A stretch of DNA of 9,440 nt, from the IMG/VR virus record IMGVR_UViG_3300023038_000043, positions 1-9,440 of that record; one strand, written 5' to 3'. The notes under the pieces are model-generated. The model did no database searches. It was not told the origin of the DNA and was given only the letters and a program-made list of their open reading frames with translations. The DNA comes from a virus (taxonomy: Duplodnaviria > Heunggongvirae > Uroviricota > Caudoviricetes). Of the stretch, positions 1-9,440 are shown piece by piece; positions within the stretch are counted from its first letter, which is position 1, and every line of letters starts with the position of its first letter. Position numbers and translations under genes: made by a program.

Positions 1-358
1 GCAGGGTGCCACCGGCATAAACAATCTCGCCCCCCTGCGGATCCGGCATCCATCCAAGCAGGGCTTTCCAGAGTTCTCTCCGGACATCATGAACGGCGTC
101 ATAGGCTGCCCACTGCCCTTTTTCATCACGCTCATTGCTGAGCACAACAATAACGGAGAAGCCTTCTGTCAAATCCTGCCAGTAATCGGTCTGTGATTTT
201 TGTTCCCCCGGCGCATCGTCAGAGGGGACAACATAGGCAGCAGGCAGTCGCAGTTTTCCGGCATCAGGGATCGCCTTAAACTGCGCCGCGCCACTAATAC
301 GGTTCTCAAAACGCGGGCATCGCTCACGCAGCGCCGCAATTATCGTTGTCAGTTTCAT
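1..358 (-). CDS. Tail-proximal structural protein, 5' portion only (possibly tail terminator/completion, DUF3168-like); runs off the window start
   Basis: Hand translation of the reverse complement from ATG at 358..356 gives MKLTTIIAALRERCPRFENRISGAAQFKAIPDAGKLRLP... with no stop to position 2. Its ATG overlaps the upstream gene's TGA (ATGA coupling). Position is immediately after the head-completion genes. Function is from recollection of similar prophage proteins, not a search. Confidence 0.5.
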   Translation of the reverse strand, partial: MKLTTIIAALRERCPRFENRISGAAQFKAIPDAGKLRLPAAYVVPSDDAPGEQKSQTDYWQDLTEGFSVIVVLSNERDEKGQWAAYDAVHDVRRELWKALLGWMPDPQGGEIVYAGGTL

Positions 359-879
359 TTATGCTTCCTTTTTACCGGACGTAACGAACGCTGCAGCTCA
401 CGGGACAACAGTTCCTGCGTCCAGTGACGCCGCCGCTCAATAACGTCAGCCATAAAGTTATTACGCGGGACCAGCCGGAAAGTCGAAGAATGATGCTTCT
501 TCTGCCGCTTATCCTTTTTATCCATTCCATACGCTGAATGGCGAACGCCGTAATACAGAAACGCCGGATAATAAGGTGCCCCCTCAGGGAAGCGGCGATT
601 CCCCTGCCCGTTTTTCTGGTCAGGGGAAATTTTCACCATCAGTCCGGGGCGACGCGTCGTTTTTTTGGGAACGTAATAACCGATGGAGCGGGCCAGACGC
701 CCGGTCTGATACCCCGGATTCTCTCCCGGACCGGAACGCCCGCGTTTAATCACCAGACGTCTGGCGTCGCGCATGTAAACGCGCCCGATTTGCACAAACG
801 CCCGTCGAAGACGGGCGCGATTAAACTCCAGCTCCTTTGGTTGTTTAAAGTCGACGTGTAAAAATGCTGTCTGATTCAT
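355..879 (-). CDS. HK97 gp10-family-like neck/tail completion protein (174 aa from ATG at 879; in-frame GTG alternatives at 918 and 888)
   Basis: ORF track 355..918; the first ATG is residue 14 (MNQTAFLHVDFKQ...), preceded by GGGGTG-type SD. Position after the head-closure gene matches HK97-like order. The 5' end overlaps the upstream gene by about 35 nt. Confidence 0.6.
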   Translation of the reverse strand: MNQTAFLHVDFKQPKELEFNRARLRRAFVQIGRVYMRDARRLVIKRGRSGPGENPGYQTGRLARSIGYYVPKKTTRRPGLMVKISPDQKNGQGNRRFPEGAPYYPAFLYYGVRHSAYGMDKKDKRQKKHHSSTFRLVPRNNFMADVIERRRHWTQELLSRELQRSLRPVKRKHK

Positions 880-1261
880 GGCATTCACCCCGTCGTCGCG
901 CTGTACGCAGTTCTTCACATTCCAGTAATAAAAAACGCCGCTGACCGTTCAGGTCGCGTATTCGCCGGATCCGGTACTCCTGACCGTAATAAACCACCTC
1001 ATGATCTGCCGTGATGTCGTGACGGAAACGGATCGTAAAATAATGTGTAACGATATTTTCTGTCTGCACTGAGCCCTGATAAGCGGCAGCGCCTGGCTGG
1101 GCCACCTTTGCCCAGACATCAAACGACTCCAGATACGTCGGCTCCGTATCAAAATCAGCGGTGGGTTCATCCACACGGAGGCGGATCTTTATCCGGCGAT
1201 TCAGTTCTCCGGGATCCGGTAAAAGGTAAGTGGCACTGGTCTGACTTTGCCTGATTTTCAT
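845..1261 (-). CDS. Head closure / head-tail adaptor protein (SPP1 gp16-like family)
   Basis: ATG at 1261..1259 overlaps the connector stop in an ATGA arrangement (tcat at 1258-1261). The C-terminal half (VWAKV...IRFRHDIT...VVYYGQEYRIRRIRD...RFLLLECEE) resembles head-closure family proteins as I recall them. The N-terminal extension in the ORF track was rejected. Confidence 0.65.
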   Translation of the reverse strand: MKIRQSQTSATYLLPDPGELNRRIKIRLRVDEPTADFDTEPTYLESFDVWAKVAQPGAAAYQGSVQTENIVTHYFTIRFRHDITADHEVVYYGQEYRIRRIRDLNGQRRFLLLECEELRTARRRGECHESDSIFTRRL

Positions 1262-1581
1262 AGAGGCACAATCCTGTAAGGACCAGCGAGCCATCTGAAA
1301 CTCACTGGCGTTTCAAGTTTCTCAACATTGGTACTCGCTGAACGATTTTCATAAAAATGACTGACCAGCATCAGCATGGCCAGACGAATGTCATCAGTCA
1401 GATGTATCCCGTCAGGATCATCTTCCGGAATCGTCTCATCCGGTGCATACAACTTCCTGTTCAGATAGGACTCTGTTCTTTTCTGTACCGCCTGTGCCAG
1501 CAGTTTCAGAAGATCGCCGTCACTATACAACCCATCATCGAGCCGGAGATGAGACTTAATTTCCTCTTCTTTCAGGAGCAT
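1258..1581 (-). CDS. gp6-like head-tail connector protein
   Basis: Internal ATG at 1581..1579 with AGGAGG 5-6 nt upstream (rc of 1586-1591) gives MLLKEEEIKSHLRLDDGLYSDGDLLKLLAQAV..., 107 aa, typical of the Phage_connect_1 family. It lies immediately downstream of the capsid gene. The longer track ORF overlaps the capsid 3' end and lacks an RBS. Confidence 0.75.
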   Translation of the reverse strand: MLLKEEEIKSHLRLDDGLYSDGDLLKLLAQAVQKRTESYLNRKLYAPDETIPEDDPDGIHLTDDIRLAMLMLVSHFYENRSASTNVEKLETPVSFRWLAGPYRIVPL

Positions 1582-1591
1582 ATTTCCTCCT

Positions 1592-1613
1592 GTGCCCGCG
1601 TAATGGCGGGCAC
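1592..1613 (-). promoter_or_regulatory. Intercistronic hairpin between capsid stop and connector SD (perfect 8-bp stem, 6-nt loop)
   Basis: gtgcccgc (1592-1599) / gtaatg loop / gcgggcac (1606-1613) are exact reverse complements. On the mRNA the hairpin is preceded by a U-run and directly abuts the AGGAGG of the next gene. A competing repeat pair cgcgtaatg (1598-1606) / cattacgcg (1623-1631) overlaps the capsid stop codon. Confidence 0.5.
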
Positions 1614-1624
1614 AAAAAACCGCA

Positions 1625-2851
1625 TTACGCGGCAGCTTTCTTGCTGGTTGCAGCCCCAATTTTCATCAGCTTAATCGCCTGAGAATCCACCAGCATACCG
1701 CCGGTTCGCTTGGTGGTATAAAAACCCACAAACGGTTTGTTGGTGTACGGATCGCGCAGGATACGGGTACCGATGCGATCAACGATGGTATAGCCACGTT
1801 TGAAGTTACCAAACGCAATGGCTTTTGCATCGGCGGCAATATCCGGCATCTGCTCATTCTCAACGATGCCATACCCTGCCAGAGAAGAAGGCTGACCCAG
1901 CTCAATACCCGGACGCCACAGATAATTTCCGTCGTTATCCTTCAGCAGACGAATGGCAAACAGGCTGCTGTTGTTCATCATGAACTTCGCGCCGCTGCGG
2001 TGCGCCTTACGCAGGGTGTAAATCAGTTTAATGATCGCATCAGCGGTCACGCCAGAAGCCGCACCGGAAGCGATATGCTGAAGTTTGCCAAACTTACGGG
2101 TTTTGTCATCTTCATCGGTGGACTCATAAGCCAGAAAACCTTTTGGTTTTTTGCTGCCGTCGCCACTGGTAAAGGCAATTTCTTCCTGTTCGGCAAATTC
2201 CAGCGCCAGCTCACTGTTGATCCAGTCTTCCACATTGAAGAAAGCGTCATCGAGCATTTTCTGGGTGGCCTGCGGGTTGCCGTAGATTTCCCCCATAAAG
2301 GGTTCAATCAGCCCCAGTTTTGAGGTGGCGGTTTCCGGACGCGTATCCGTTTCCCCCACCCATCCGGACTTAGTGCCGCCCAGATTCACCAGTTTTTTAT
2401 AATCCGAGCCACCGAGGGTGATCACAGTGGCTTCCTGGCGCATCACCACCTCATCTTTCAGCAGCGTCAGGATGGTACGATCCAGTTCTTCCGGAATGGC
2501 ATAACCACCATCTTCATCATTACCTACCTGAAGCGCCTTACGTTCAAGTTCACGCAGACCGTCTTCACGCCCCTTGCGCATAAATCCGATAAACGCTTCT
2601 TTGTGTTCACCGGCAACTTTATTTTTCGTGCCGCCTGCCGGACGCTTAACTTCAGCCAGCTCAGCCTCAAGATCGCTTTTCAGGTTTTCCAGCTCGCTGA
2701 TTTGCCCGTTCAGGCTTTCCACCTGTTCGGCCAGCTTGCTTTTTTCCTGTTCGATCGCGTCAATGCGCTTGTCGTTTTTTGCCTTAAAATCGTCAAACTT
2801 CTGCTGCAAATCCTGCGCGACCTGTTCAACGTCTTTAATATCAACAGCCAT
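1625..2851 (-). CDS. Major capsid protein, HK97 family, with N-terminal coiled-coil delta/scaffold-like domain
   Basis: 408 aa; ATG at 2851..2849 with AGGAG 7 nt upstream. The N-terminus is a heptad-like charged coil (EQVAQDLQQKFDDFKAKNDKRIDAIEQEKSKLAEQVESL...) followed by a long region typical of HK97-fold capsid proteins. It directly follows the prohead protease. Confidence 0.93.
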   Translation of the reverse strand: MAVDIKDVEQVAQDLQQKFDDFKAKNDKRIDAIEQEKSKLAEQVESLNGQISELENLKSDLEAELAEVKRPAGGTKNKVAGEHKEAFIGFMRKGREDGLRELERKALQVGNDEDGGYAIPEELDRTILTLLKDEVVMRQEATVITLGGSDYKKLVNLGGTKSGWVGETDTRPETATSKLGLIEPFMGEIYGNPQATQKMLDDAFFNVEDWINSELALEFAEQEEIAFTSGDGSKKPKGFLAYESTDEDDKTRKFGKLQHIASGAASGVTADAIIKLIYTLRKAHRSGAKFMMNNSSLFAIRLLKDNDGNYLWRPGIELGQPSSLAGYGIVENEQMPDIAADAKAIAFGNFKRGYTIVDRIGTRILRDPYTNKPFVGFYTTKRTGGMLVDSQAIKLMKIGAATSKKAAA

Positions 2852-2864
2852 TATTTACTCCTGG

Positions 2865-3515
2865 TTAAAATTTAAGATTTTTCAGTGCATTCAGTGCGAC
2901 ATCCACATCCTCAGCATCACGCAGGGATAAAGCGCCATATCCCCCGGCCATGAATGCTTTGGCCTGGGTTCGCGAGAGTCCAACATCGCGCAGGACTCGC
3001 TCAATAATTTTCTGATCGGGGATCTCCCCACGCGCCAGCGCATTTTTCACATCGCTGATGCGTGCTTCATCATTGGAAGGAAACGTCACCAGACTGACCT
3101 CCCACAGGTCGATCTCTTTCAGCAGGAATACCCCTTTTTCCCGGTCGTACTCCCAGTCTTTCAGGATGTAGCCAATAGAAAGGCCGGTTAAAGAACCGGC
3201 CTTCATATGGGCATGTGCACGTTTTGCCAGGGGATCATCATCAACGAGTAATCGCCCCCTGACATAAAGCCCGACATCATCTTCTTTCATTTCGGTGTAC
3301 ACACCGATGGGCTCATCCATACGGTGCTGCCAGAGCAACGCAGGCAGCGCCTTTTTTTCGCTCCATTTCTGGAGTGTTGTGGTAAAGGCTCCGGGGATCA
3401 CCACATCATCGTGGCTGTCCTTAACACCAAAAACAGAACCGTAACCTTCAAATTCCCCGGAATCACTGACGGATTTCAGGTTCAGCGGTATATCAAGACG
3501 CTGTTTTATCTGCAT
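2865..3515 (-). CDS. Prohead protease, HK97 family (216 aa from ATG at 3515; longer alternative from ATG at 3545)
   Basis: The ATG at 3515..3513 is preceded by AAGGAGA (rc of 3523-3531), whereas the 3545 ATG has no SD. MQIKQRLDIPLNLKSVSDSGEFEGYGSVFGVKDSHDDVV... is typical of HK97 gp4-type proteases. Sits between portal and capsid. Confidence 0.88.
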   Translation of the reverse strand: MQIKQRLDIPLNLKSVSDSGEFEGYGSVFGVKDSHDDVVIPGAFTTTLQKWSEKKALPALLWQHRMDEPIGVYTEMKEDDVGLYVRGRLLVDDDPLAKRAHAHMKAGSLTGLSIGYILKDWEYDREKGVFLLKEIDLWEVSLVTFPSNDEARISDVKNALARGEIPDQKIIERVLRDVGLSRTQAKAFMAGGYGALSLRDAEDVDVALNALKNLKF

Positions 3516-4734
3516 CTCCACTCTCCTTTTTCTTACCGTTGTCATCGCCAGCAGAGGGACTGGTGGTCATGTTCATCGGTGTCAGATACACATCACCGCC
3601 TGGTCGGGGATTCATATCCTCCAGATCACGGCAGTCATTAGGGGAATAAATCCCCCAGTTGATCCCCGTGGCATACGCTTCAAAGCGGGATTTCATGTCG
3701 CCACGCAACAATGCTCCGGCATTAAATTTGGCGTAAAACCTCCCCTGTTTGCTCTCCCTGACCAGCCCTGTATTGATCCGTTGTTCAATACGGGTCAGAT
3801 ACGGCACAAGGGAATAGTTGATAAATCCGAGCCCCAGCTCTTCAATATTGTTGAAGGTGGCGCGATCGGTGTTCTGCACCATGTGCAATGGCACACGGAA
3901 CAGACGACAGATTTCTTCCAGCTGAAACTTGCGGGTTTCCAGGAACTGGCTGTCCTCGGCGTTCAGCGCCATCGACTTCCAGTCCAGCCCCATTTCCAGA
4001 ATCATCGGGCGGTGAGCATTGCCAAGCCCCGTGTGACGCTCCTCAAAATCTTTCTTCAGACGCTCGTAAGCATCCGGCGTGAGCTTTTGTTCCGTACGCA
4101 ACACACCGGATGTCACCGCACCATTACCAAACAACCTGGCACCGTGCTCCTCGGTTGCCGCTGCCAGTGAAATGGCCTCACGCGCATACGCAATGGGATT
4201 CAGCCCCACCAGTCCGTCCAGCGTCAGAGTGCGCACATGCCAGATTTTATCCTGGGTCAGCACATCCACGGAACCATCCGGAAACGTCACCTGATAAACC
4301 GGCTGCCACTGGCTGTTCAGCTTCGGTTCCACACAGCCCGGATCTATCGGAAGAAGCTCCACCACTTCCCCCAGTGCCTTTACCTTGTAGGCGTAAAAAT
4401 TCCCCCGCAGACACAGGCAGACAATGACCAGTTCCCAGAATTCCTGCGGCGTCATGTAGCCATTGGGTTTTGCCGAAATCAGCTTATGCAGCCGTTCATC
4501 CACCGCCCGTGTTTTAAGGGTGCCGCTGATTTTGTAGAGACTGCAGGGCAGCATACCAACAGACTCAGCCAGCACCCTGACGCAGGAATAGACCGCCGTC
4601 AGCCGCATGGCCCGCTGGCTGCTGATCCGCTTTCCGGTATAGGTGTCGTATGACAGCCCGATAGCCTCCGCCAGCTCTGCTGGCGTGGTCACCGGTGCGT
4701 CACTTTTTCGTTGAAATAACCCCGAAAAGAACAC
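3493..4734 (-). CDS. Portal protein, HK97 family (apparent GTG start)
   Basis: 413-aa ORF with GGAGG 6 nt upstream of the first (GTG) codon at 4734..4732. Size, position between terminase and protease, and acidic C-terminal tail are typical of portals. Overlaps the protease gene 5' end by at least 23 nt. Confidence 0.88.
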   Translation of the reverse strand: MFFSGLFQRKSDAPVTTPAELAEAIGLSYDTYTGKRISSQRAMRLTAVYSCVRVLAESVGMLPCSLYKISGTLKTRAVDERLHKLISAKPNGYMTPQEFWELVIVCLCLRGNFYAYKVKALGEVVELLPIDPGCVEPKLNSQWQPVYQVTFPDGSVDVLTQDKIWHVRTLTLDGLVGLNPIAYAREAISLAAATEEHGARLFGNGAVTSGVLRTEQKLTPDAYERLKKDFEERHTGLGNAHRPMILEMGLDWKSMALNAEDSQFLETRKFQLEEICRLFRVPLHMVQNTDRATFNNIEELGLGFINYSLVPYLTRIEQRINTGLVRESKQGRFYAKFNAGALLRGDMKSRFEAYATGINWGIYSPNDCRDLEDMNPRPGGDVYLTPMNMTTSPSAGDDNGKKKESGDADKTAS

Positions 4735-4916
4735 TATTTACCTCCGCCGACAGACTGCCGTGTACGGTCGAGATATCGTGCAACCAGCCACGACCAGAAC
4801 AGGCACAGCGCCCCGGCAACAACAAAACCCGCCGGGGGATAAATCAGCCAGGCGCCATACGCCAGCAAAAGCACACCCAGCACGCCCACCAGAGGCGTGA
4901 GAATTATCAGAAACAT
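4734..4916 (-). CDS. Small predicted two-TM membrane protein (60 aa) between terminase large subunit and portal
   Basis: ATG at 4916..4914 with GAGG 6 nt upstream; [49 protein letters not shown]... is strongly hydrophobic with host-like CTG-rich codons. Its stop TAG (4736..4734) overlaps the portal start codon. No family recognised. Confidence 0.5.
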
Positions 4917-4927
4917 AATGTCCTCGG

Positions 4928-6685
4928 TTAAAGCGAGCGGATACCAACACTAATCAGGTGTTCAGACAGATCCGGCTCCGGTTCACCGCCATTGACCAGC
5001 ATCCGGCTCATTGCTGTAAACATCGCAACAGGGCCGTCGATTTTTGCTTCAGGCGTGGATTTGTTCGGGAAGATATTGTCGTTTTTGTCCGGTTTTACCG
5101 TAACGTTAGACATCATCCAGTTCATGACCGGGTGATTGCTGTGGTGAAAACGCCCGGCATAGACCAGTGATTCCGTTTCCTTCATGGCCTCTGACAGATT
5201 GCGGACCGTCTGCGGAACTTCCACCAGCGGTATCCCTTCTTCAGCCAGAGCCAGACTGAACTGCATTGCACTCCACGGGTCAAATCCCAGCTCCCTCAGG
5301 TTTTCACCACCAATCCATTCCAGTAAGTCACTTTTTATCTGAGCATGATCGATAACATCACCATCCGTCAGGATGAGCTTATCCATCTCCGCCCATTTCC
5401 GGTAAAGTTCTGCCTGCTGCCGCGAGCACCGCTCCAGCCGTCCTTCCGGGAGCCAGAATTTAAAATCAGCATGAACATGTCCGTTATCGGTTCGCCAGAG
5501 TTTTGCCGCCGCACAGATATCAATCTTATGAGCAAGGTCGACGCCGACCCACATGGGATACGTTTTCAGCTCATGTCGTGGGGCAATATATTCGCATTTC
5601 TCCCACTTAATCATGTCCATCCAGGCAGACTCTGCTGTTACCCACACATTCATGTGTTTCGTGAAAAAATTCACCCGCGCTGAAACCTGTTCCTTCGCTT
5701 TTTTCGCCAGACGACGCAGATCATCCCAGCGTTTACAGATGCCCAGGCCCGGATTCGCTTTCTGCCAGACCGTTTCATCAAACGGATCATCTCCCTCATC
5801 GAGCGTGTAAATAATCGCAAAGTAGGAGTCGTCTTTTACCGCGCCCTCCACGTCACTGTTATAGCCTCGCAATACCTTGATGGCGTAATCGCGTTGCTCG
5901 TAACAAATCCCTTCCTTGTTAAAGCCCGCCGTGGTGATACCAAATAACAGGGACTGCAGACGGGCACCGGTTGCCGTTTCCAGAACGTCCCACACGTCGC
6001 GGGTTTTATGTGCATGCAGCTCATCAATAATGGCGCAGTGGATGTTCAGACCGTCCAGGTTGTTTGCATCCGAGGAAAGCGGTTCAAATTTTGATGCACT
6101 CTGCTCCTGGTAAATCGCCAGCTTGTTGAAATCAAACAACCGCCCGAGTGTCGACCGGGCTTTTCTGACCATATTTTTGGCGTCTTCAAACACGATTCTG
6201 GCCTGGTCACGCGTGGTTGCGGCTGAATACACCTCAGCCCCGCCTTCACCATCTGCCCCCGTCATATACAGACCGATACCCGATGACAGGGTTGATTTTG
6301 CGTTTTTACGGGCGACTTCGTTGTACGCCGTCCGGAACCGGCGCACCATCACCGGGCGCCCGCTGCCATCGCTGCGCATGACAACTTCCCCGGTCTCTTC
6401 ATTCACCAGCGGAATGACAAAACCAAAAATATTAATGAGGATAAAAACATGCCAGTCCATCAACTCAATGGGCTGACCTGCCAGCGCCCCTTTCACATGG
6501 GGCACAAATTTGTAGAAATTCAGGATGTGCTGCGCACGGGGTTCACTGAAATAAATCCCCCGCTCTTCGCCGTACTTCAGATCATCAAGAAAACGCTGGC
6601 AGGCCAGACGGACAAATTCGCCAGCGACAATTTCTCCTGCAACAACACGTTCGGCGTAGCGGATCCCGTCAGCCACTTTTGCCAT
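4928..6685 (-). CDS. Terminase large subunit (Terminase_1-like ATPase/nuclease)
   Basis: 585 aa; ATG at 6685..6683 shares a nucleotide with the small-subunit TGA (TGATG coupling). Contains a Walker-B-like hydrophobic-DE motif ([14 protein letters not shown]) and overall terminase-like layout. Lies between the small subunit and portal. Confidence 0.93.
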
Positions 6686-7167
6686 CAGTCTCTCGCTTTT
6701 AAAAGCTCTGCCAGTGGATCAACATCATCCGGTCCGGCGGTATTTACTTTCGCCCGGCTTGCCGGTGACATACCAAACTCTGCAAGCATCGCCCGGATCC
6801 GCTTCCAGGCATCCGCCTTCATCGCCGCAGCCGGATGTGCCTTGATCATCACATCGCCATTCTGCGTTTCCGTGCGGTAGGTATAACCCTCAACATCGAG
6901 TGTTTCGCAGTGATGCCGGTATTCGATGTAGGCTTCCACCAGTAACTCGAGTGCACGCGCATCAAGCTGAGAAATGATCCCTTCCGCATTCAGCTCTTCC
7001 GCCATTCGCCTGAACCAGTACTTCCCCTGCGCCCCTAAATGTTGCGGAATTTTAGGGAGACCTTTTTCATCCTTTTTAGCGGCTTTTTTGGGGTCTTTAA
7101 CGGGGCGCTTTGAGGGGTTGCCTCGTATCAAATGCAGGCGTGGCGGGGTTTTCGGGGGTCCTGACAT
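6685..7167 (-). CDS. Terminase small subunit (P27-family-like)
   Basis: 160 aa; ATG at 7167..7165. Basic Lys/Pro-rich N-terminus (PPKTPPRLHLIRGNPSKRPVKDPKKAAKKDEKGLP) followed by a helical region, typical of P27-type small subunits. Immediately upstream of and coupled to the large subunit. Confidence 0.85.
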   Translation of the reverse strand: MSGPPKTPPRLHLIRGNPSKRPVKDPKKAAKKDEKGLPKIPQHLGAQGKYWFRRMAEELNAEGIISQLDARALELLVEAYIEYRHHCETLDVEGYTYRTETQNGDVMIKAHPAAAMKADAWKRIRAMLAEFGMSPASRAKVNTAGPDDVDPLAELLKARD

Positions 7168-7180
7168 AATCGGTTTTACC

Positions 7181-7193
7181 TATCAATCGTTTG
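7181..7193. promoter_or_regulatory. IHF core-consensus match (TATCAATCGTTTG fits WATCAANNNNTTR), candidate cosB-like bending site
   Basis: Exact match to the IHF core consensus read directly in the sequence, 14-26 nt upstream of the terS start and next to an A7 tract (7205-7211). Functional assignment is inference by analogy to lambda cosB. Confidence 0.3.
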
Positions 7194-7244
7194 ATCGCAT
7201 TCCCAAAAAAAGTTTTCGAACCTGCGGCGATGCGAGAAAGGGTT

Positions 7245-7296
7245 GGCGGGCGGTCCCGGACAGCCAGGGCTGCAGGGATTTGACCCGCCCCTCCCC
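7245..7296. other. Candidate cos (cosN-like) site: GC-rich nested inverted repeats between HNH endonuclease and terS
   Basis: GGCGGGCGGTCCCGG (7245-7259) and GACCCGCCCCTCCCC (7282-7296) are imperfect inverted repeats flanking a central palindrome cagcc-ag-ggctg (7261-7272). Location between an HNH endonuclease and terS is where HK97-type phages carry cos. The exact nick positions cannot be derived from sequence alone. Confidence 0.35.
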
Positions 7297-7313
7297 ACAA
7301 GTGAGAATAATTA

Positions 7314-7664
7314 TCACCTGATTCGTTCGCGCGCTGTTTTCGCTTTGTGGCAGGGCCAGCACAGACTCTGCAGGTTGCTGTCTGCGTCTGTTCCGCCATG
7401 TGCTTTCGGGATGATGTGGTCGACAGTTTTCGCCTCGCGCACCACACCGACACGCAGACACAACTGACACAGACCTTTATCGCGCTTCAGAATACGGGCA
7501 CGAATCACCGTCCATTTTGAGCCATAACCACGCTGGTGGCGGCTCAGTCCGCGCTGGTGCTGTGCCCAGCCTTCACCACGATGTTTATCGCAGTAGCCAG
7601 AACTGTCTGTCGTTGTGCCTGCGCAGCCTCGCTTACGGCATGCGCGGGGGATCCGTGATGGCAT
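7314..7664 (-). CDS. HNH endonuclease (packaging-associated, HK97 gp74-like)
   Basis: 116 aa; Cys-x2-Cys...His...Asn...His...Cys-x2-Cys layout (CQLCLRVGVVREAKTVDHIIPKAHGGTDADSNLQSLCWPCHKAKT) plus an N-terminal Cys cluster. Located directly upstream of cos/terS. Confidence 0.9.
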   Translation of the reverse strand: MPSRIPRACRKRGCAGTTTDSSGYCDKHRGEGWAQHQRGLSRHQRGYGSKWTVIRARILKRDKGLCQLCLRVGVVREAKTVDHIIPKAHGGTDADSNLQSLCWPCHKAKTARERIR

Positions 7665-7682
7665 AGAATTTCACTCTCCTGA

Positions 7683-7691
7683 TGGTAAAAT
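7683..7691 (+). promoter_or_regulatory. Candidate extended -10 promoter (TGgTAAAAT) for the plus-strand 70-aa gene
   Basis: TGn plus TAAAAT (5/6 match to TATAAT) lies 33-41 nt upstream of the ATG at 7724; no good -35, which is tolerated for extended -10 promoters. GGAG RBS at 7715-7718. Confidence 0.3.
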
Positions 7692-7723
7692 AACCATTCC
7701 TTAAAAACCTATACGGAGAACAA

Positions 7724-7936
7724 ATGAAAAATACTATTTCAAAAGGATTTCACCGGACAGGCGTTCTGTTGGCTATTTTGGTGTTGATGTTGAGCTTTGG
7801 TTTCTTTTTATTAACAGGTGCTGGTACAGGAATCTCGTTATTTGCTGTATTAGTTTCCCTGGTATGTGCCTTACTGACATACGGCATACTCAGACTGGTC
7901 GGATGGGCCGTTAACGGATTCATAAAAGATAACTAA
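7724..7936 (+). CDS. Small two-TM membrane protein (70 aa), opposite-strand AT-rich moron-like gene
   Basis: ATG at 7724 with GGAG 5 nt upstream; MKNTISKGFHRTGVLLAILVLMLSFGFFLLTGAGTGISLFAVLVSLVCALLTYGILRLVGWAVNGF... has two hydrophobic helices. About 40% GC by hand count versus visibly GC-richer flanks, and AT-rich codons (tta, att, ttt). Followed by a hairpin. Confidence 0.6.
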   Translation: MKNTISKGFHRTGVLLAILVLMLSFGFFLLTGAGTGISLFAVLVSLVCALLTYGILRLVGWAVNGFIKDN

Positions 7937-7945
7937 AACATTATC

Positions 7946-7970
7946 GCAGCCCCTCACACTGAAGGGCTGC
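7946..7970. terminator. Hairpin between convergent small genes (7-bp stem gcagccc/gggctgc, about 11-nt loop); weak bidirectional terminator candidate
   Basis: Perfect 7-bp GC-rich inverted repeat 10 nt after the plus-strand TAA (7934-7936) and 15 nt after the minus-strand 60-aa gene stop. Flanking U-tracts are poor on both strands, so termination is probably partial. Confidence 0.35.
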
Positions 7971-7984
7971 TGTAATGCTGGTGA

Positions 7985-8167
7985 TCAGTTCTGCGTACAC
8001 AGTCGAACGCCATCAATAAGCTGGCAGACCTGAAACGCGGTATCGAAAAGCTGGCGCGCCTTATCCAGACTGACGCATCCCACCAGGAAAAAAGGCACCA
8101 GTATCGCTACCAGTGCCCATTTCGCCGCCGTTCGCGGCATTCTGTGTGTCCAGTGTTTTCGGTTCAT
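7985..8167 (-). CDS. Small lipoprotein-like / membrane protein (60 aa) with candidate lipobox LVGC
   Basis: ATG at 8167..8165 lies 1 nt after the upstream 37-aa ORF stop (TGAcATG), preceded by a GGTGGTG SD-like sequence. Basic n-region, hydrophobic h-region (WALVAILVPFFLVG), then Cys, leaving a roughly 29-aa mature peptide with 3 Cys. An internal ATG at 8140 would give a canonical 22-aa signal peptide. Confidence 0.5.
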   Translation of the reverse strand: MNRKHWTHRMPRTAAKWALVAILVPFFLVGCVSLDKARQLFDTAFQVCQLIDGVRLCTQN

Positions 8168-8168
8168 G

Positions 8169-8282
8169 TCACCACCAACGCACAGCCAAAATCAGAACAG
8201 CAATCACCACAAGGCGAATTGCAAAGGCCGCAGCCCTTGTCAAATCAAGGCTCGCGGGAGTTTCCACTTCAATACCTTTCAT
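8169..8282 (-). CDS. 37-aa tail-anchored hydrophobic peptide (below the ORF-track length cutoff)
   Basis: Hand translation: ATG at 8282..8280, GAGG 9 nt upstream, product MKGIEVETPASLDLTRAAAFAIRLVVIAVLILAVRWW, stop TGA at 8171..8169, tightly coupled to the 60-aa gene. A TATAAA -10-like hexamer (rc of 8307-8312) lies upstream. Confidence 0.4.
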   Translation of the reverse strand: MKGIEVETPASLDLTRAAAFAIRLVVIAVLILAVRWW

Positions 8283-8373
8283 AATGGACAACCTCAAAAA
8301 GAATCTTTTATACTTTCCCACGAGGATTTTCTCCGTACTCACTACTCACAATTTCCTCTTTGACGTGAAAACT

Positions 8374-8416
8374 AAAAACCCCGGACTGTTCCAGCAGCCG
8401 GGGTTTTGTTTTTTAT
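8374..8416. terminator. Strong bidirectional rho-independent terminator
   Basis: AAAAA (8374-8378), stem CCCCGG(A)CTG (8379-8388), 6-nt loop, CAGCCGGGG (8395-8403), then TTTTGTTTTTTATTT (8404-8416). Stem is 9 bp with one bulge. U-tracts are available on both strands. Sits immediately after the 93-aa gene stop. Confidence 0.75.
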
Positions 8417-8694
8417 TTACTGCCTTGGGTGCGGCATCTGGCTATTTCATTCCTGGCTTTACTGTCACCGCGACAGATACAACGCACCGTGTCTCCGGTC
8501 AGCGTGGTAATGTAGGCTTCATCCGTTTTTTCCACCGAAATGCATGGTACATTTCCATCCCGGCAATACTCCACTTGGGCAGCAAGGTGAGTGTTGCGCG
8601 GGTAAAATTCCAGGCGATACATATTCCCCAGAACATGCACTTCTTCAACCTGACGCCCATCTTCCGTTACCGTGATTTTTTTCAGTGCGTACAT
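8413..8694 (-). CDS. Hypothetical Cys-containing protein (93 aa), no recognised family
   Basis: ATG at 8694..8692 with perfect GGAGG 5 nt upstream (rc of 8700-8704); MYALKKITVTEDGRQVEEVHVLGNMYRLEFYPRNTHLAAQVEYCRDGNVPCISVEKTD...CICRGD...; no TM segment or signal peptide. Bracketed by terminator-like hairpins on both sides. Confidence 0.55.
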   Translation of the reverse strand: MYALKKITVTEDGRQVEEVHVLGNMYRLEFYPRNTHLAAQVEYCRDGNVPCISVEKTDEAYITTLTGDTVRCICRGDSKARNEIARCRTQGSK

Positions 8695-8723
8695 ACATAC
8701 CTCCGTTCTTTCGTTTTTTGAGC

Positions 8724-8747
8724 AATAAAAAAGCCGCTCATGGCGGC
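8724..8747 (-). terminator. Candidate rho-independent terminator downstream of the endolysin gene (5-bp GC stem plus U-run on the minus-strand transcript)
   Basis: gccgc (8733-8737) / gcggc (8743-8747) stem with tcatg loop; on the minus-strand RNA the hairpin is followed by UUUUUUAUU (rc of 8724-8732). Short stem, so strength is uncertain. Confidence 0.35.
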
Positions 8748-8764
8748 CCTGTATGTTTTGCAAG

Positions 8765-9142
8765 CTATCGTTTCAATTGAAAATGTGGGCCGTCTTTAAG
8801 CGTCCGCCAGTCACCGCCCCATTCGATGGCAGTTCCAAGCTCTGCGGCAGCCTGCTTAAATGCCTGCGCGATTTTCTCGTACAGAGGCCAGTCCCATGAC
8901 ACCTGGCTGCCAACATAAGCCACAACATCCACAGCATCACCGGTCAGGTGGCGGCTGTTCATGGTCTGGCTTTTCCCTTCCGCGACCAGCTGTTTCTGGC
9001 GTTCTTTCGTGCGCAGCCCTTCCGTAATACCGAAATCAACCTCCGTCAGCTCCAGCGCACGGCGAACAACAGCAACCAGCTGTGGTTTGACGCCCTCCAG
9101 ATTTTTTTCACTGCGACGACTGAATCTGAATTTACCCGACAT
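8765..9142 (-). CDS. Endolysin, peptidase M15 family (VanY / L-alanyl-D-glutamate peptidase-like)
   Basis: ATG at 9142..9140 with GGAGG 5 nt upstream; the track ORF begins at an upstream GTG that overlaps the SD. Motifs SRHLTGDAVDV and WGGDW...DGPHFQL match the His/Asp/His zinc-binding signature of M15 peptidases as I recall it. Immediately downstream of a membrane protein. Confidence 0.82.
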   Translation of the reverse strand: MSGKFRFSRRSEKNLEGVKPQLVAVVRRALELTEVDFGITEGLRTKERQKQLVAEGKSQTMNSRHLTGDAVDVVAYVGSQVSWDWPLYEKIAQAFKQAAAELGTAIEWGGDWRTLKDGPHFQLKR

Positions 9143-9144
9143 GC

Positions 9145-9420
9145 TCACCTCCGGAATGAAAGGATTTTTGAAACGTTCCCGCGTGCACGTATCACCAGCA
9201 CGCAGAACAGCAGATTAAGCCCCACCGCCAGCCAGTTCGCCGCTAACGGGCGACCGCACAGATAGCTGAGTGGTGCAAAGGCATAAAGCAGCATCAGTAG
9301 CCAGGCCAGCCATGACATCAGCGGTTTATGTCTCGACTCACCACGACGATAAAAAAAGAGCGTCAGCACGATAACCGTGCTTAACACCACATTCAGTAAT
9401 CCGGGAAGGTTACTTAACAT
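9145..9420 (-). CDS. Putative holin (three predicted TM segments, 91 aa)
   Basis: ATG at 9420..9418 with GGAGG 5 nt upstream (rc of 9426-9430); the track ORF starts at an upstream GTG. Three hydrophobic stretches; the stop lies 2 nt from the endolysin ATG and overlaps its SD. Called by position and topology only. Confidence 0.55.
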   Translation of the reverse strand: MLSNLPGLLNVVLSTVIVLTLFFYRRGESRHKPLMSWLAWLLMLLYAFAPLSYLCGRPLAANWLAVGLNLLFCVLVIRARGNVSKILSFRR

Positions 9421-9440
9421 TACCGCCTCCACCCCGCAGA

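Follow-up and report, generated by a model that had tools for sequence, protein, structure and literature searches.

A probable moron-like cargo gene and a candidate outer-membrane lipoprotein in a phiP27-type phage lysis cassette

We analyzed the lysis region of a tailed phage (Caudoviricetes) held in IMG/VR as record IMGVR_UViG_3300023038_000043, of which positions 1 to 9,440 (the whole 9,440-nucleotide [nt] stretch, hereafter the window) were available. A gene for a soluble protein of 93 amino acids (aa), here called p93, follows the holin and endolysin genes, and the original prediction had described a cassette with no recognizable spanin in which p93 could be a lysis regulator or a moron, or the spanin function could lie elsewhere or be supplied unconventionally. 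Our results instead make it fairly probable that p93 is a dispensable, moron-like cargo gene carried on an inserted 353-bp unit, with no part in envelope disruption, and that the outer-membrane step lies with lipo60, a 60-aa lipoprotein homologous to an open reading frame (ORF) of phage phiP27 listed as an outer-membrane spanin (o-spanin). Two small ORFs past the terminator downstream of p93, namely, p57 and lipo60, had been overlooked, and contrary to the original prediction the cassette is most likely not missing its outer-membrane step. The phage genes from lysis to capsid lie on the minus strand, with the lysis cassette transcribed in the order holin, M15 endolysin, p93, p57 (a 57-aa ORF), and lipo60 (Table 1). 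For comparison, we used 80 IMG/VR loci with p93 relatives and 81 with lipo60 relatives (individual loci are given L numbers), at which neighboring genes were classified by BLASTP against reference proteins.

Table 1. Coordinates of the lysis-region features in the window (RBS, ribosome-binding site; TM, transmembrane segment)
Feature	Positions	Strand	Remarks
Holin, 3-TM, Phage_holin_3_7	9145..9432	-	PF05449, E = 2.3e-21; PHROG 217 (holin)
M15 peptidase endolysin	8765..9148	-	PF13539, E = 2.9e-12; PHROG 465 (endolysin), E = 9e-76; probable ATG at 9142
p93 module, 353 bp (leader hairpin, RBS, ORF)	8413..8765	-	Exactly this segment missing in L152
p93 leader hairpin with T-run, intrinsic-terminator-like	8721..8750	-	~25 nt 5' of the p93 RBS
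RBS GGAGG	8700..8704	-	5 nt 5' of the p93 ATG; read from the sequence
p93 ORF, 93 aa, soluble, beta-rich	8413..8694	-	PHROG 33497; stop codon 8413-8415
Bidirectional terminator	~8371..8412	both	-21.8 kcal/mol (minus), -24.5 kcal/mol (plus); z = -4.3, -4.7
p57, membrane protein, 49-57 aa	8169..8342	-	PHROG 4493/1115, no assigned function; precedes lipo60
lipo60, lipoprotein precursor, 60 aa, lipobox LVGC	7985..8167	-	PHROG 7528; 250 bp downstream of p93
Hairpin closing the lysis cassette	7946..7970	both	z = -7.1 and -4.7; common to a convergent plus-strand 70-aa ORF

The p93 module and its product

The relative L152, in which the M15 endolysin is followed directly by p57 and lipo60, aligns to window positions 8850..8766 and then to 8412..7980. 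Because it lacks exactly 8413-8765, the segment that had drawn attention to p93 corresponds to a discrete 353-bp module, and the alignment indicates a presence/absence insertion. Another relative, L092, differs from the window by 8168-8768, its endolysin stop codon and lipoprotein start being 14 nt apart. At 48%, the GC content of the module is below the 54-55% of the genes on either side. We found the module in 66 of 5426 complete Escherichia coli genomes (~1%), the surrounding lysis region being matched in 469 of them, and in a single deposited phage, where the gene is annotated as hypothetical.

Besides the endolysin-p93-p57-lipo60 arrangement of the window, p93 occurs as endolysin-p93-Rz/Rz1 in L023 and L029 (PF03245, 1.4e-38; PF06085, 3e-21), as Q-(cys68-)p93-holin-endolysin-Rz/Rz1 in prophages of Proteus, Xenorhabdus, and Providencia, as lipo60-cys68-p93 in L037, and as GH108 endolysin-cys68-p93-Nu1 in Edwardsiella. 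Since it stands beside genuine Rz/Rz1 genes and, in other genera, upstream of the holin, these gene contexts indicate that p93 is neither a spanin nor a spanin substitute; that p93 itself is not a spanin had also been the original expectation, and it bears no spanin features. The frequently adjoining cys68 encodes a 68-aa Cys/His-rich protein (PHROG 4298; motif HEVH...C...C...CxxCCxxCH; e.g., L037 3715-3921, L042 3667-3921, and L087 3722-3928, among others) that is not present in the window. Its leader contains an inverted repeat sequestering the ribosome-binding site (RBS) (ATTTCTCC...GGAGAAAT), the loop of which carries the palindrome TGCGTACGCA, with compensatory changes across genera. The idea that p93 requires cys68 as a partner, or forms a toxin-antitoxin pair with it, was rejected, the two being adjacent in ~17 of 80 loci and each being found alone. 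In the Xenorhabdus-type prophages L065 and L071 (~3900-3960), a tRNA 3' end (GGTTCGATTCCGAGAGGTTCCACCA) lies directly 5' of the p93 leader hairpin, and the resulting Q-tRNA-cargo-holin layout matches the stx region of Stx phages.

The leader hairpin (8 pairs, 5 of them GC, with a loop of 5 in the terminator scan) has counterparts throughout the family: a GC hairpin with a T-run precedes the ATG of every p93 homologue by 20-45 nt in all contexts, while upstream of it lie, depending on context, the endolysin, cys68, a tRNA gene, Q, or a truncated lipo60. Pairing is well kept in an alignment of 19 sequences (88.5% of cells paired, with 4 of the 8 pairs changed on both sides), a score reached by 0 of 500 shuffles and compared with at most 71.5% in slid controls. 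However, the left arm varies with context, and in L034 the leader hairpin is the hairpin internal to lipo60, with the fusion at its T-run. In these alignments the recombination joint would therefore appear to be the T-run, and some of the apparent covariation comes from distinct hairpins, not from the evolution of a single stem. An alternative leader fold pairing ACAUACA with the start-codon region was dropped (z = -1.0; it needs a window-specific base). In some prophages (e.g., L034 3889-4032), a lipo60 cut short at its internal hairpin/T-run is joined to the p93 leader, and other prophages have lost both p57 and lipo60 (GH108-p93-Nu1) or carry a frameshifted p93; we take these cases (L034 3889-4032, L036, and L050-L054) as signs of decay and of recombination at the T-run.

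Hairpins flank p93 on both sides, as had been predicted, but only the leader hairpin (8750-8721) belongs to the insertion. The bidirectional terminator downstream bounds the p57 module on its 5' side, because the p93-less relatives L152 and L103 retain it directly after the endolysin stop. A crude consensus scan of 7600-9440 gave no minus-strand sigma-70 promoter, and Rfam returned only sub-threshold matches over the same interval.

p93 is a real gene, as its 56 homologues, its match to PHROG 33497 (E = 4e-53, residues 1-93 on profile positions 1-95 of 95), and the confidence of its AlphaFold2 (AF2) model (pLDDT 89) attest. The GGAGG noted in the original prediction is present as a perfect RBS and is kept in E. 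coli-type loci. The family is tiny, limited to Enterobacterales, and unannotated: the PHROG has no assigned function and every one of the 56 homologues is labelled hypothetical. As also predicted, the protein has no TM (the top 19-residue Kyte-Doolittle mean is 0.22) and neither a signal peptide nor a lipobox (six-frame lipobox scan of the window); its net charge is +1. The model shows seven antiparallel strands in a beta-meander plus a short C-terminal helix that is missing from shorter homologues. The protein does contain Cys, though five residues (44, 51, 72, 74, and 87) rather than about six, and when 30 family members are aligned, C74 alone shows partial conservation; the Cys content thus carries no functional signal, and a metal or disulfide motif was ruled out. 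Searches for distant relatives yielded no informative fold or family. The sole Pfam hit, PDDEXK_14 (E = 0.15, 12.7 bits against a cut-off of 25), was discarded, NCBIfam and PADLOC gave no match, and a profile search of 1.84 billion representatives recovered 21 clusters with no tie to a larger family. Foldseek against the PDB and BFVD returned nothing with E < 0.2, and a PDB profile hit to polyubiquitin (E = 3e-4), with zero individually significant stretches, is a repeat-summing artefact. Our best guess at its activity is a protein-binding accessory or host-modulating factor acting through an open beta-meander sheet.

The lipoprotein lipo60 and the outer-membrane step

The six-frame scan identified lipo60 as the only lipoprotein ORF in the window. 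Its mature part, 30 aa with net charge 0, is predicted to be helical (AF2 helix at residues 12-59, pLDDT 70), and C31, C48, and C57 are invariant among 23 homologues. lipo60 shares 88% identity with the ORF of phiP27 (L002 3003-3191) listed as an o-spanin. Kongari et al. (2018; PMC6139136) placed the phiP27 proteins in singleton families as a "separated" two-component spanin with a periplasmic length (62 residues) shorter than any other in their set, the o-spanin being catalogued by bioinformatics only; in the literature searched, we found no experimental test of outer-membrane disruption by a phiP27-type o-spanin. Across its 81 loci, lipo60 is always the last gene of a holin8-holin3_7-(M15 or GH108) cassette, Rz/Rz1 genes lie within 5 kb of it in none, and Rz/Rz1 fills its slot in L023 and L029. 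A scan of genome contigs for lipo60 gave one locus. The NCBIfam spanin2_1 profile was rejected for lipo60 (E = 0.11, 12.9 bits against a cut-off of 100, covering the signal/lipobox region only). The window contains no canonical inner-membrane spanin (i-spanin), with an N-terminal transmembrane domain (TMD) and a long periplasmic coiled coil, and, as had been stated earlier, no canonical Rz/Rz1 pair follows the endolysin. From homology and gene order, the outer-membrane step of the window's cassette most likely belongs to lipo60. The original prediction had named two findings that would count against it, spanin genes just outside the window and membership of p93 in a well-characterized unrelated family; a spanin candidate does exist, inside the window, and p93 matches no characterized family.

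In the commonest arrangement (32 of 78 scorable loci), lipo60 starts 14 nt after the endolysin stop, which leaves no room for a partner (i-spanin) gene. Elsewhere the junction is filled by p57 (247-334 nt), by p57 and p75 (499 nt), by a phiP27-type opposite-strand ORF (485 nt), by p93 and p57 as in the window (597 nt), or by cys68, p93, p57, and p75 (1067 nt). What Kongari et al. (2018) list as the i-spanin of phiP27 is an ORF of 64 aa with a TTG start (L002 3322-3516; NC_003356 20348-20542). It has no PHROG family, runs antisense to a 90-aa ORF of PHROG 36812, is not in the window, and is not conserved in relatives; on this sequence evidence it was probably miscalled. We also disfavored p57 as an i-spanin: its TMD is C-terminal, it has hardly any periplasmic part, and it is an optional neighbor, which roughly half of the lipo60 loci have and the commonest arrangement lacks.

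The start of p57 is overlapped on the opposite strand by a sigma-70-like promoter (TGGACA, 18 nt, TATACT; 8285-8314, plus strand), the -10 and a -35-like hexamer of which remain in p57 variants that have diverged. This promoter is followed 65-95 nt later by the terminator arm on the plus strand (8371-8412). A predicted antisense RNA of ~90 nt would therefore cover the RBS and 5' untranslated region of p57, a small cationic membrane protein. The layout resembles a type I toxin-antitoxin system, with Rfam matches that are sub-threshold only.

These observations raise the possibility, which we put forward tentatively and regard as the less probable case, that the lone 30-residue helix of lipo60 disrupts the outer membrane without any i-spanin, as a one-component, lipid-anchored agent, and that the endolysin-lipo60 junction is a hot spot for hairpin-led cargo mini-genes such as p93 and p57, the latter perhaps controlled by antisense RNA.

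Weighing the explanations for p93

In the explanation that we prefer, p93 as moron-like cargo, a 353-bp unit comprising a terminator-like hairpin, an RBS, and an ORF would have been inserted at the junction between the endolysin and the outer-membrane-disruption gene of a phiP27-type cassette. With no sigma-70 promoter detected and a terminator in front, p93 would most likely be transcribed only within the late transcript, reading through terminators under Q antitermination, and its product would be a cytoplasmic late protein. Among the options initially offered for p93, a moron fits best, given an insertion present in about one in a hundred complete E. coli genomes. Several points weigh against this explanation. 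p93 always lies between Q and the terminase genes, beside the lysis genes, a position compatible with a lysis-related accessory role; a classical moron has its own promoter, and none was found for p93; and the late, Q-dependent expression is deduced from sequence signals only. On the side of lipo60, the mature helix of 30 residues is too short to span the periplasm, and its lysis role is putative.

Should the consensus scan have missed a promoter, p93 could be a classical moron expressed in the lysogen and serving host fitness, superinfection exclusion, or anti-phage defense. The insertion is flanked by terminator hairpins, its GC content is slightly under that of its neighbors, it shares hot spots with the small cargo genes cys68, Ant, and p75, and it occupies the Q-holin and lysis-terminase regions, which are textbook moron sites in lambdoid phages (stx, bor). 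We nevertheless consider this unlikely: only ~25 nt separate the leader T-run from the p93 RBS, the sequence 5' of the hairpin differs between contexts, so that no conserved promoter travels with p93, the scan of 7600-9440 saw no sigma-70-like minus-strand promoter, and PADLOC gave no match.

It is somewhat less likely still that p93, coexpressed with the cassette, acts in the cytoplasm to tune the timing of the holin or the activity of the endolysin. Such a lysis regulator would account for a gene that is always in or beside the lysis cassette and is probably cotranscribed late. However, p93 accompanies endolysins of no fewer than three unrelated types (M15, GH108, and the Proteus-group "lysN") as well as differing holin sets and thus has no constant partner; most relatives with the same holin and endolysin genes do without it, it has no membrane segment, and its position relative to the lysis genes varies, from directly 5' of Rz/Rz1 (L023 and L029) to 5' of the holin elsewhere.

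That p93 is an unconventional spanin substitute, a soluble, disruptin-like outer-membrane disruptor freed through the holin lesion, is highly improbable, for although it takes the usual spanin place after the endolysin in a window free of Rz/Rz1, p93 is found together with canonical Rz/Rz1 genes (directly after it in L023 and L029, and also at ~25 other loci), it is not cationic (+1) and forms a beta sheet rather than an amphipathic helix, it is missing from most cassettes of this type, and a lipoprotein candidate sits next door.

As cargo, p93 is one more uncharacterized, Enterobacterales-limited gene family in the late operons of Stx-type prophages and their relatives, a minor result when taken alone. 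The analysis removes the false lead of a spaninless cassette with a Cys-rich substitute and moves attention to lipo60, a lone lipoprotein that is more interesting than p93, an ordinary late-operon cargo gene without an assigned function. A widespread lysis cassette of E. coli and Salmonella has two holins, an endolysin, and just one very small lipoprotein, its commonest form having no inner-membrane spanin partner. For this cassette a single spanin assignment has been published (phiP27), and it depends on an apparently miscalled i-spanin ORF. If lipo60 alone does suffice, it would be the smallest lipid-anchored outer-membrane disruptor and one that is genetically tractable in E. coli.

Neighboring genes and comparison with known systems

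After lipo60 come the genes for an HNH endonuclease, the small and large terminase subunits, the portal, the protease, and the major capsid protein. The nearest deposited relatives are Escherichia phage phiSTEC1575-Stx2k, which has an identical gene order and ~93% DNA identity to the window, and phiP27. Past the lysis cassette, a 70-aa ORF with two TMs (7724-7936, plus strand) is opposite in orientation to the phage genes, has a GC content of 40% versus 52% for the window, and terminates at its own strong hairpin (7946-7970); its sole family match, to DUF6050, is weak, and its features resemble those of a classical moron. A 60-aa two-TM protein (4734-4916, minus strand) encoded between the genes for the portal and the large terminase matches PHROG 502, "moron/auxiliary... 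membrane protein" (E = 5e-27).

The traits that define morons are partly present in p93: it is a presence/absence insertion flanked by terminators and with deviant GC content, yet the downstream hairpin belongs to the neighboring module, and a promoter of its own was not seen. Morons are said to have been defined in HK97 by Juhala and colleagues in 2000. Like lambdoid morons and late cargo (stx between Q and S; bor and lom in lambda), p93 is an extra gene between usually adjacent genes, with terminator hairpins at its boundaries, slightly deviant GC content, the same hot spots, and dispensability. It departs from them in having no detected promoter, a hairpin on its 5' side rather than on the 3' side only, and no known virulence or fitness phenotype.

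p93 shows none of the defining features examined for the four kinds of outer-membrane-disrupting proteins. It has no N-terminal TMD, no PF03245 match, and no long coiled coil, being modeled as a beta-meander, as against an i-spanin. The lipobox of an o-spanin was found only at 7985-8167. Of the N-terminal lipobox and C-terminal TMD of a u-spanin, p93 has neither and lipo60 only the former, and with its net charge of +1 and beta-rich fold p93 is not the short, strongly cationic amphipathic helix of a disruptin. With lambda Rz/Rz1 (PF03245/PF06085) it shares only the genomic slot downstream of the endolysin; unlike them, it has no TMD, lipobox, or coiled coil, and it stands directly 5' of the genuine pair in L023 and L029. 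The phiKT disruptin gp28 is a 56-aa cationic amphipathic peptide (bioRxiv 10.1101/515445). To it, lipo60 (and, loosely, p57) corresponds as a small helical candidate for disruption in a cassette with no canonical spanin, but lipo60 is uncharged overall and lipid anchored, and the beta-rich, nearly neutral p93 bears no resemblance to it at all.

A lone lipo60 disruptor may fall outside the described classes: it would not be a two-component spanin, it lacks the C-terminal TMD of a u-spanin, and it would differ from the soluble disruptins. Like the u-spanin gp11 of T1, lipo60 has an N-terminal lipobox and seemingly no dedicated inner-membrane partner gene, unlike gp11 in its missing C-terminal TMD and its mature part of only 30 residues. 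The phiP27 system differs in its 64-aa i-spanin ORF, absent from the window and from most relatives; the window has p57 instead, with a C-terminal rather than N-terminal TMD and an optional occurrence. To the phiP27 o-spanin itself, however, lipo60 is related by homology, by periplasmic Cys, by the same lipobox, and by the same 30-aa helical mature part.
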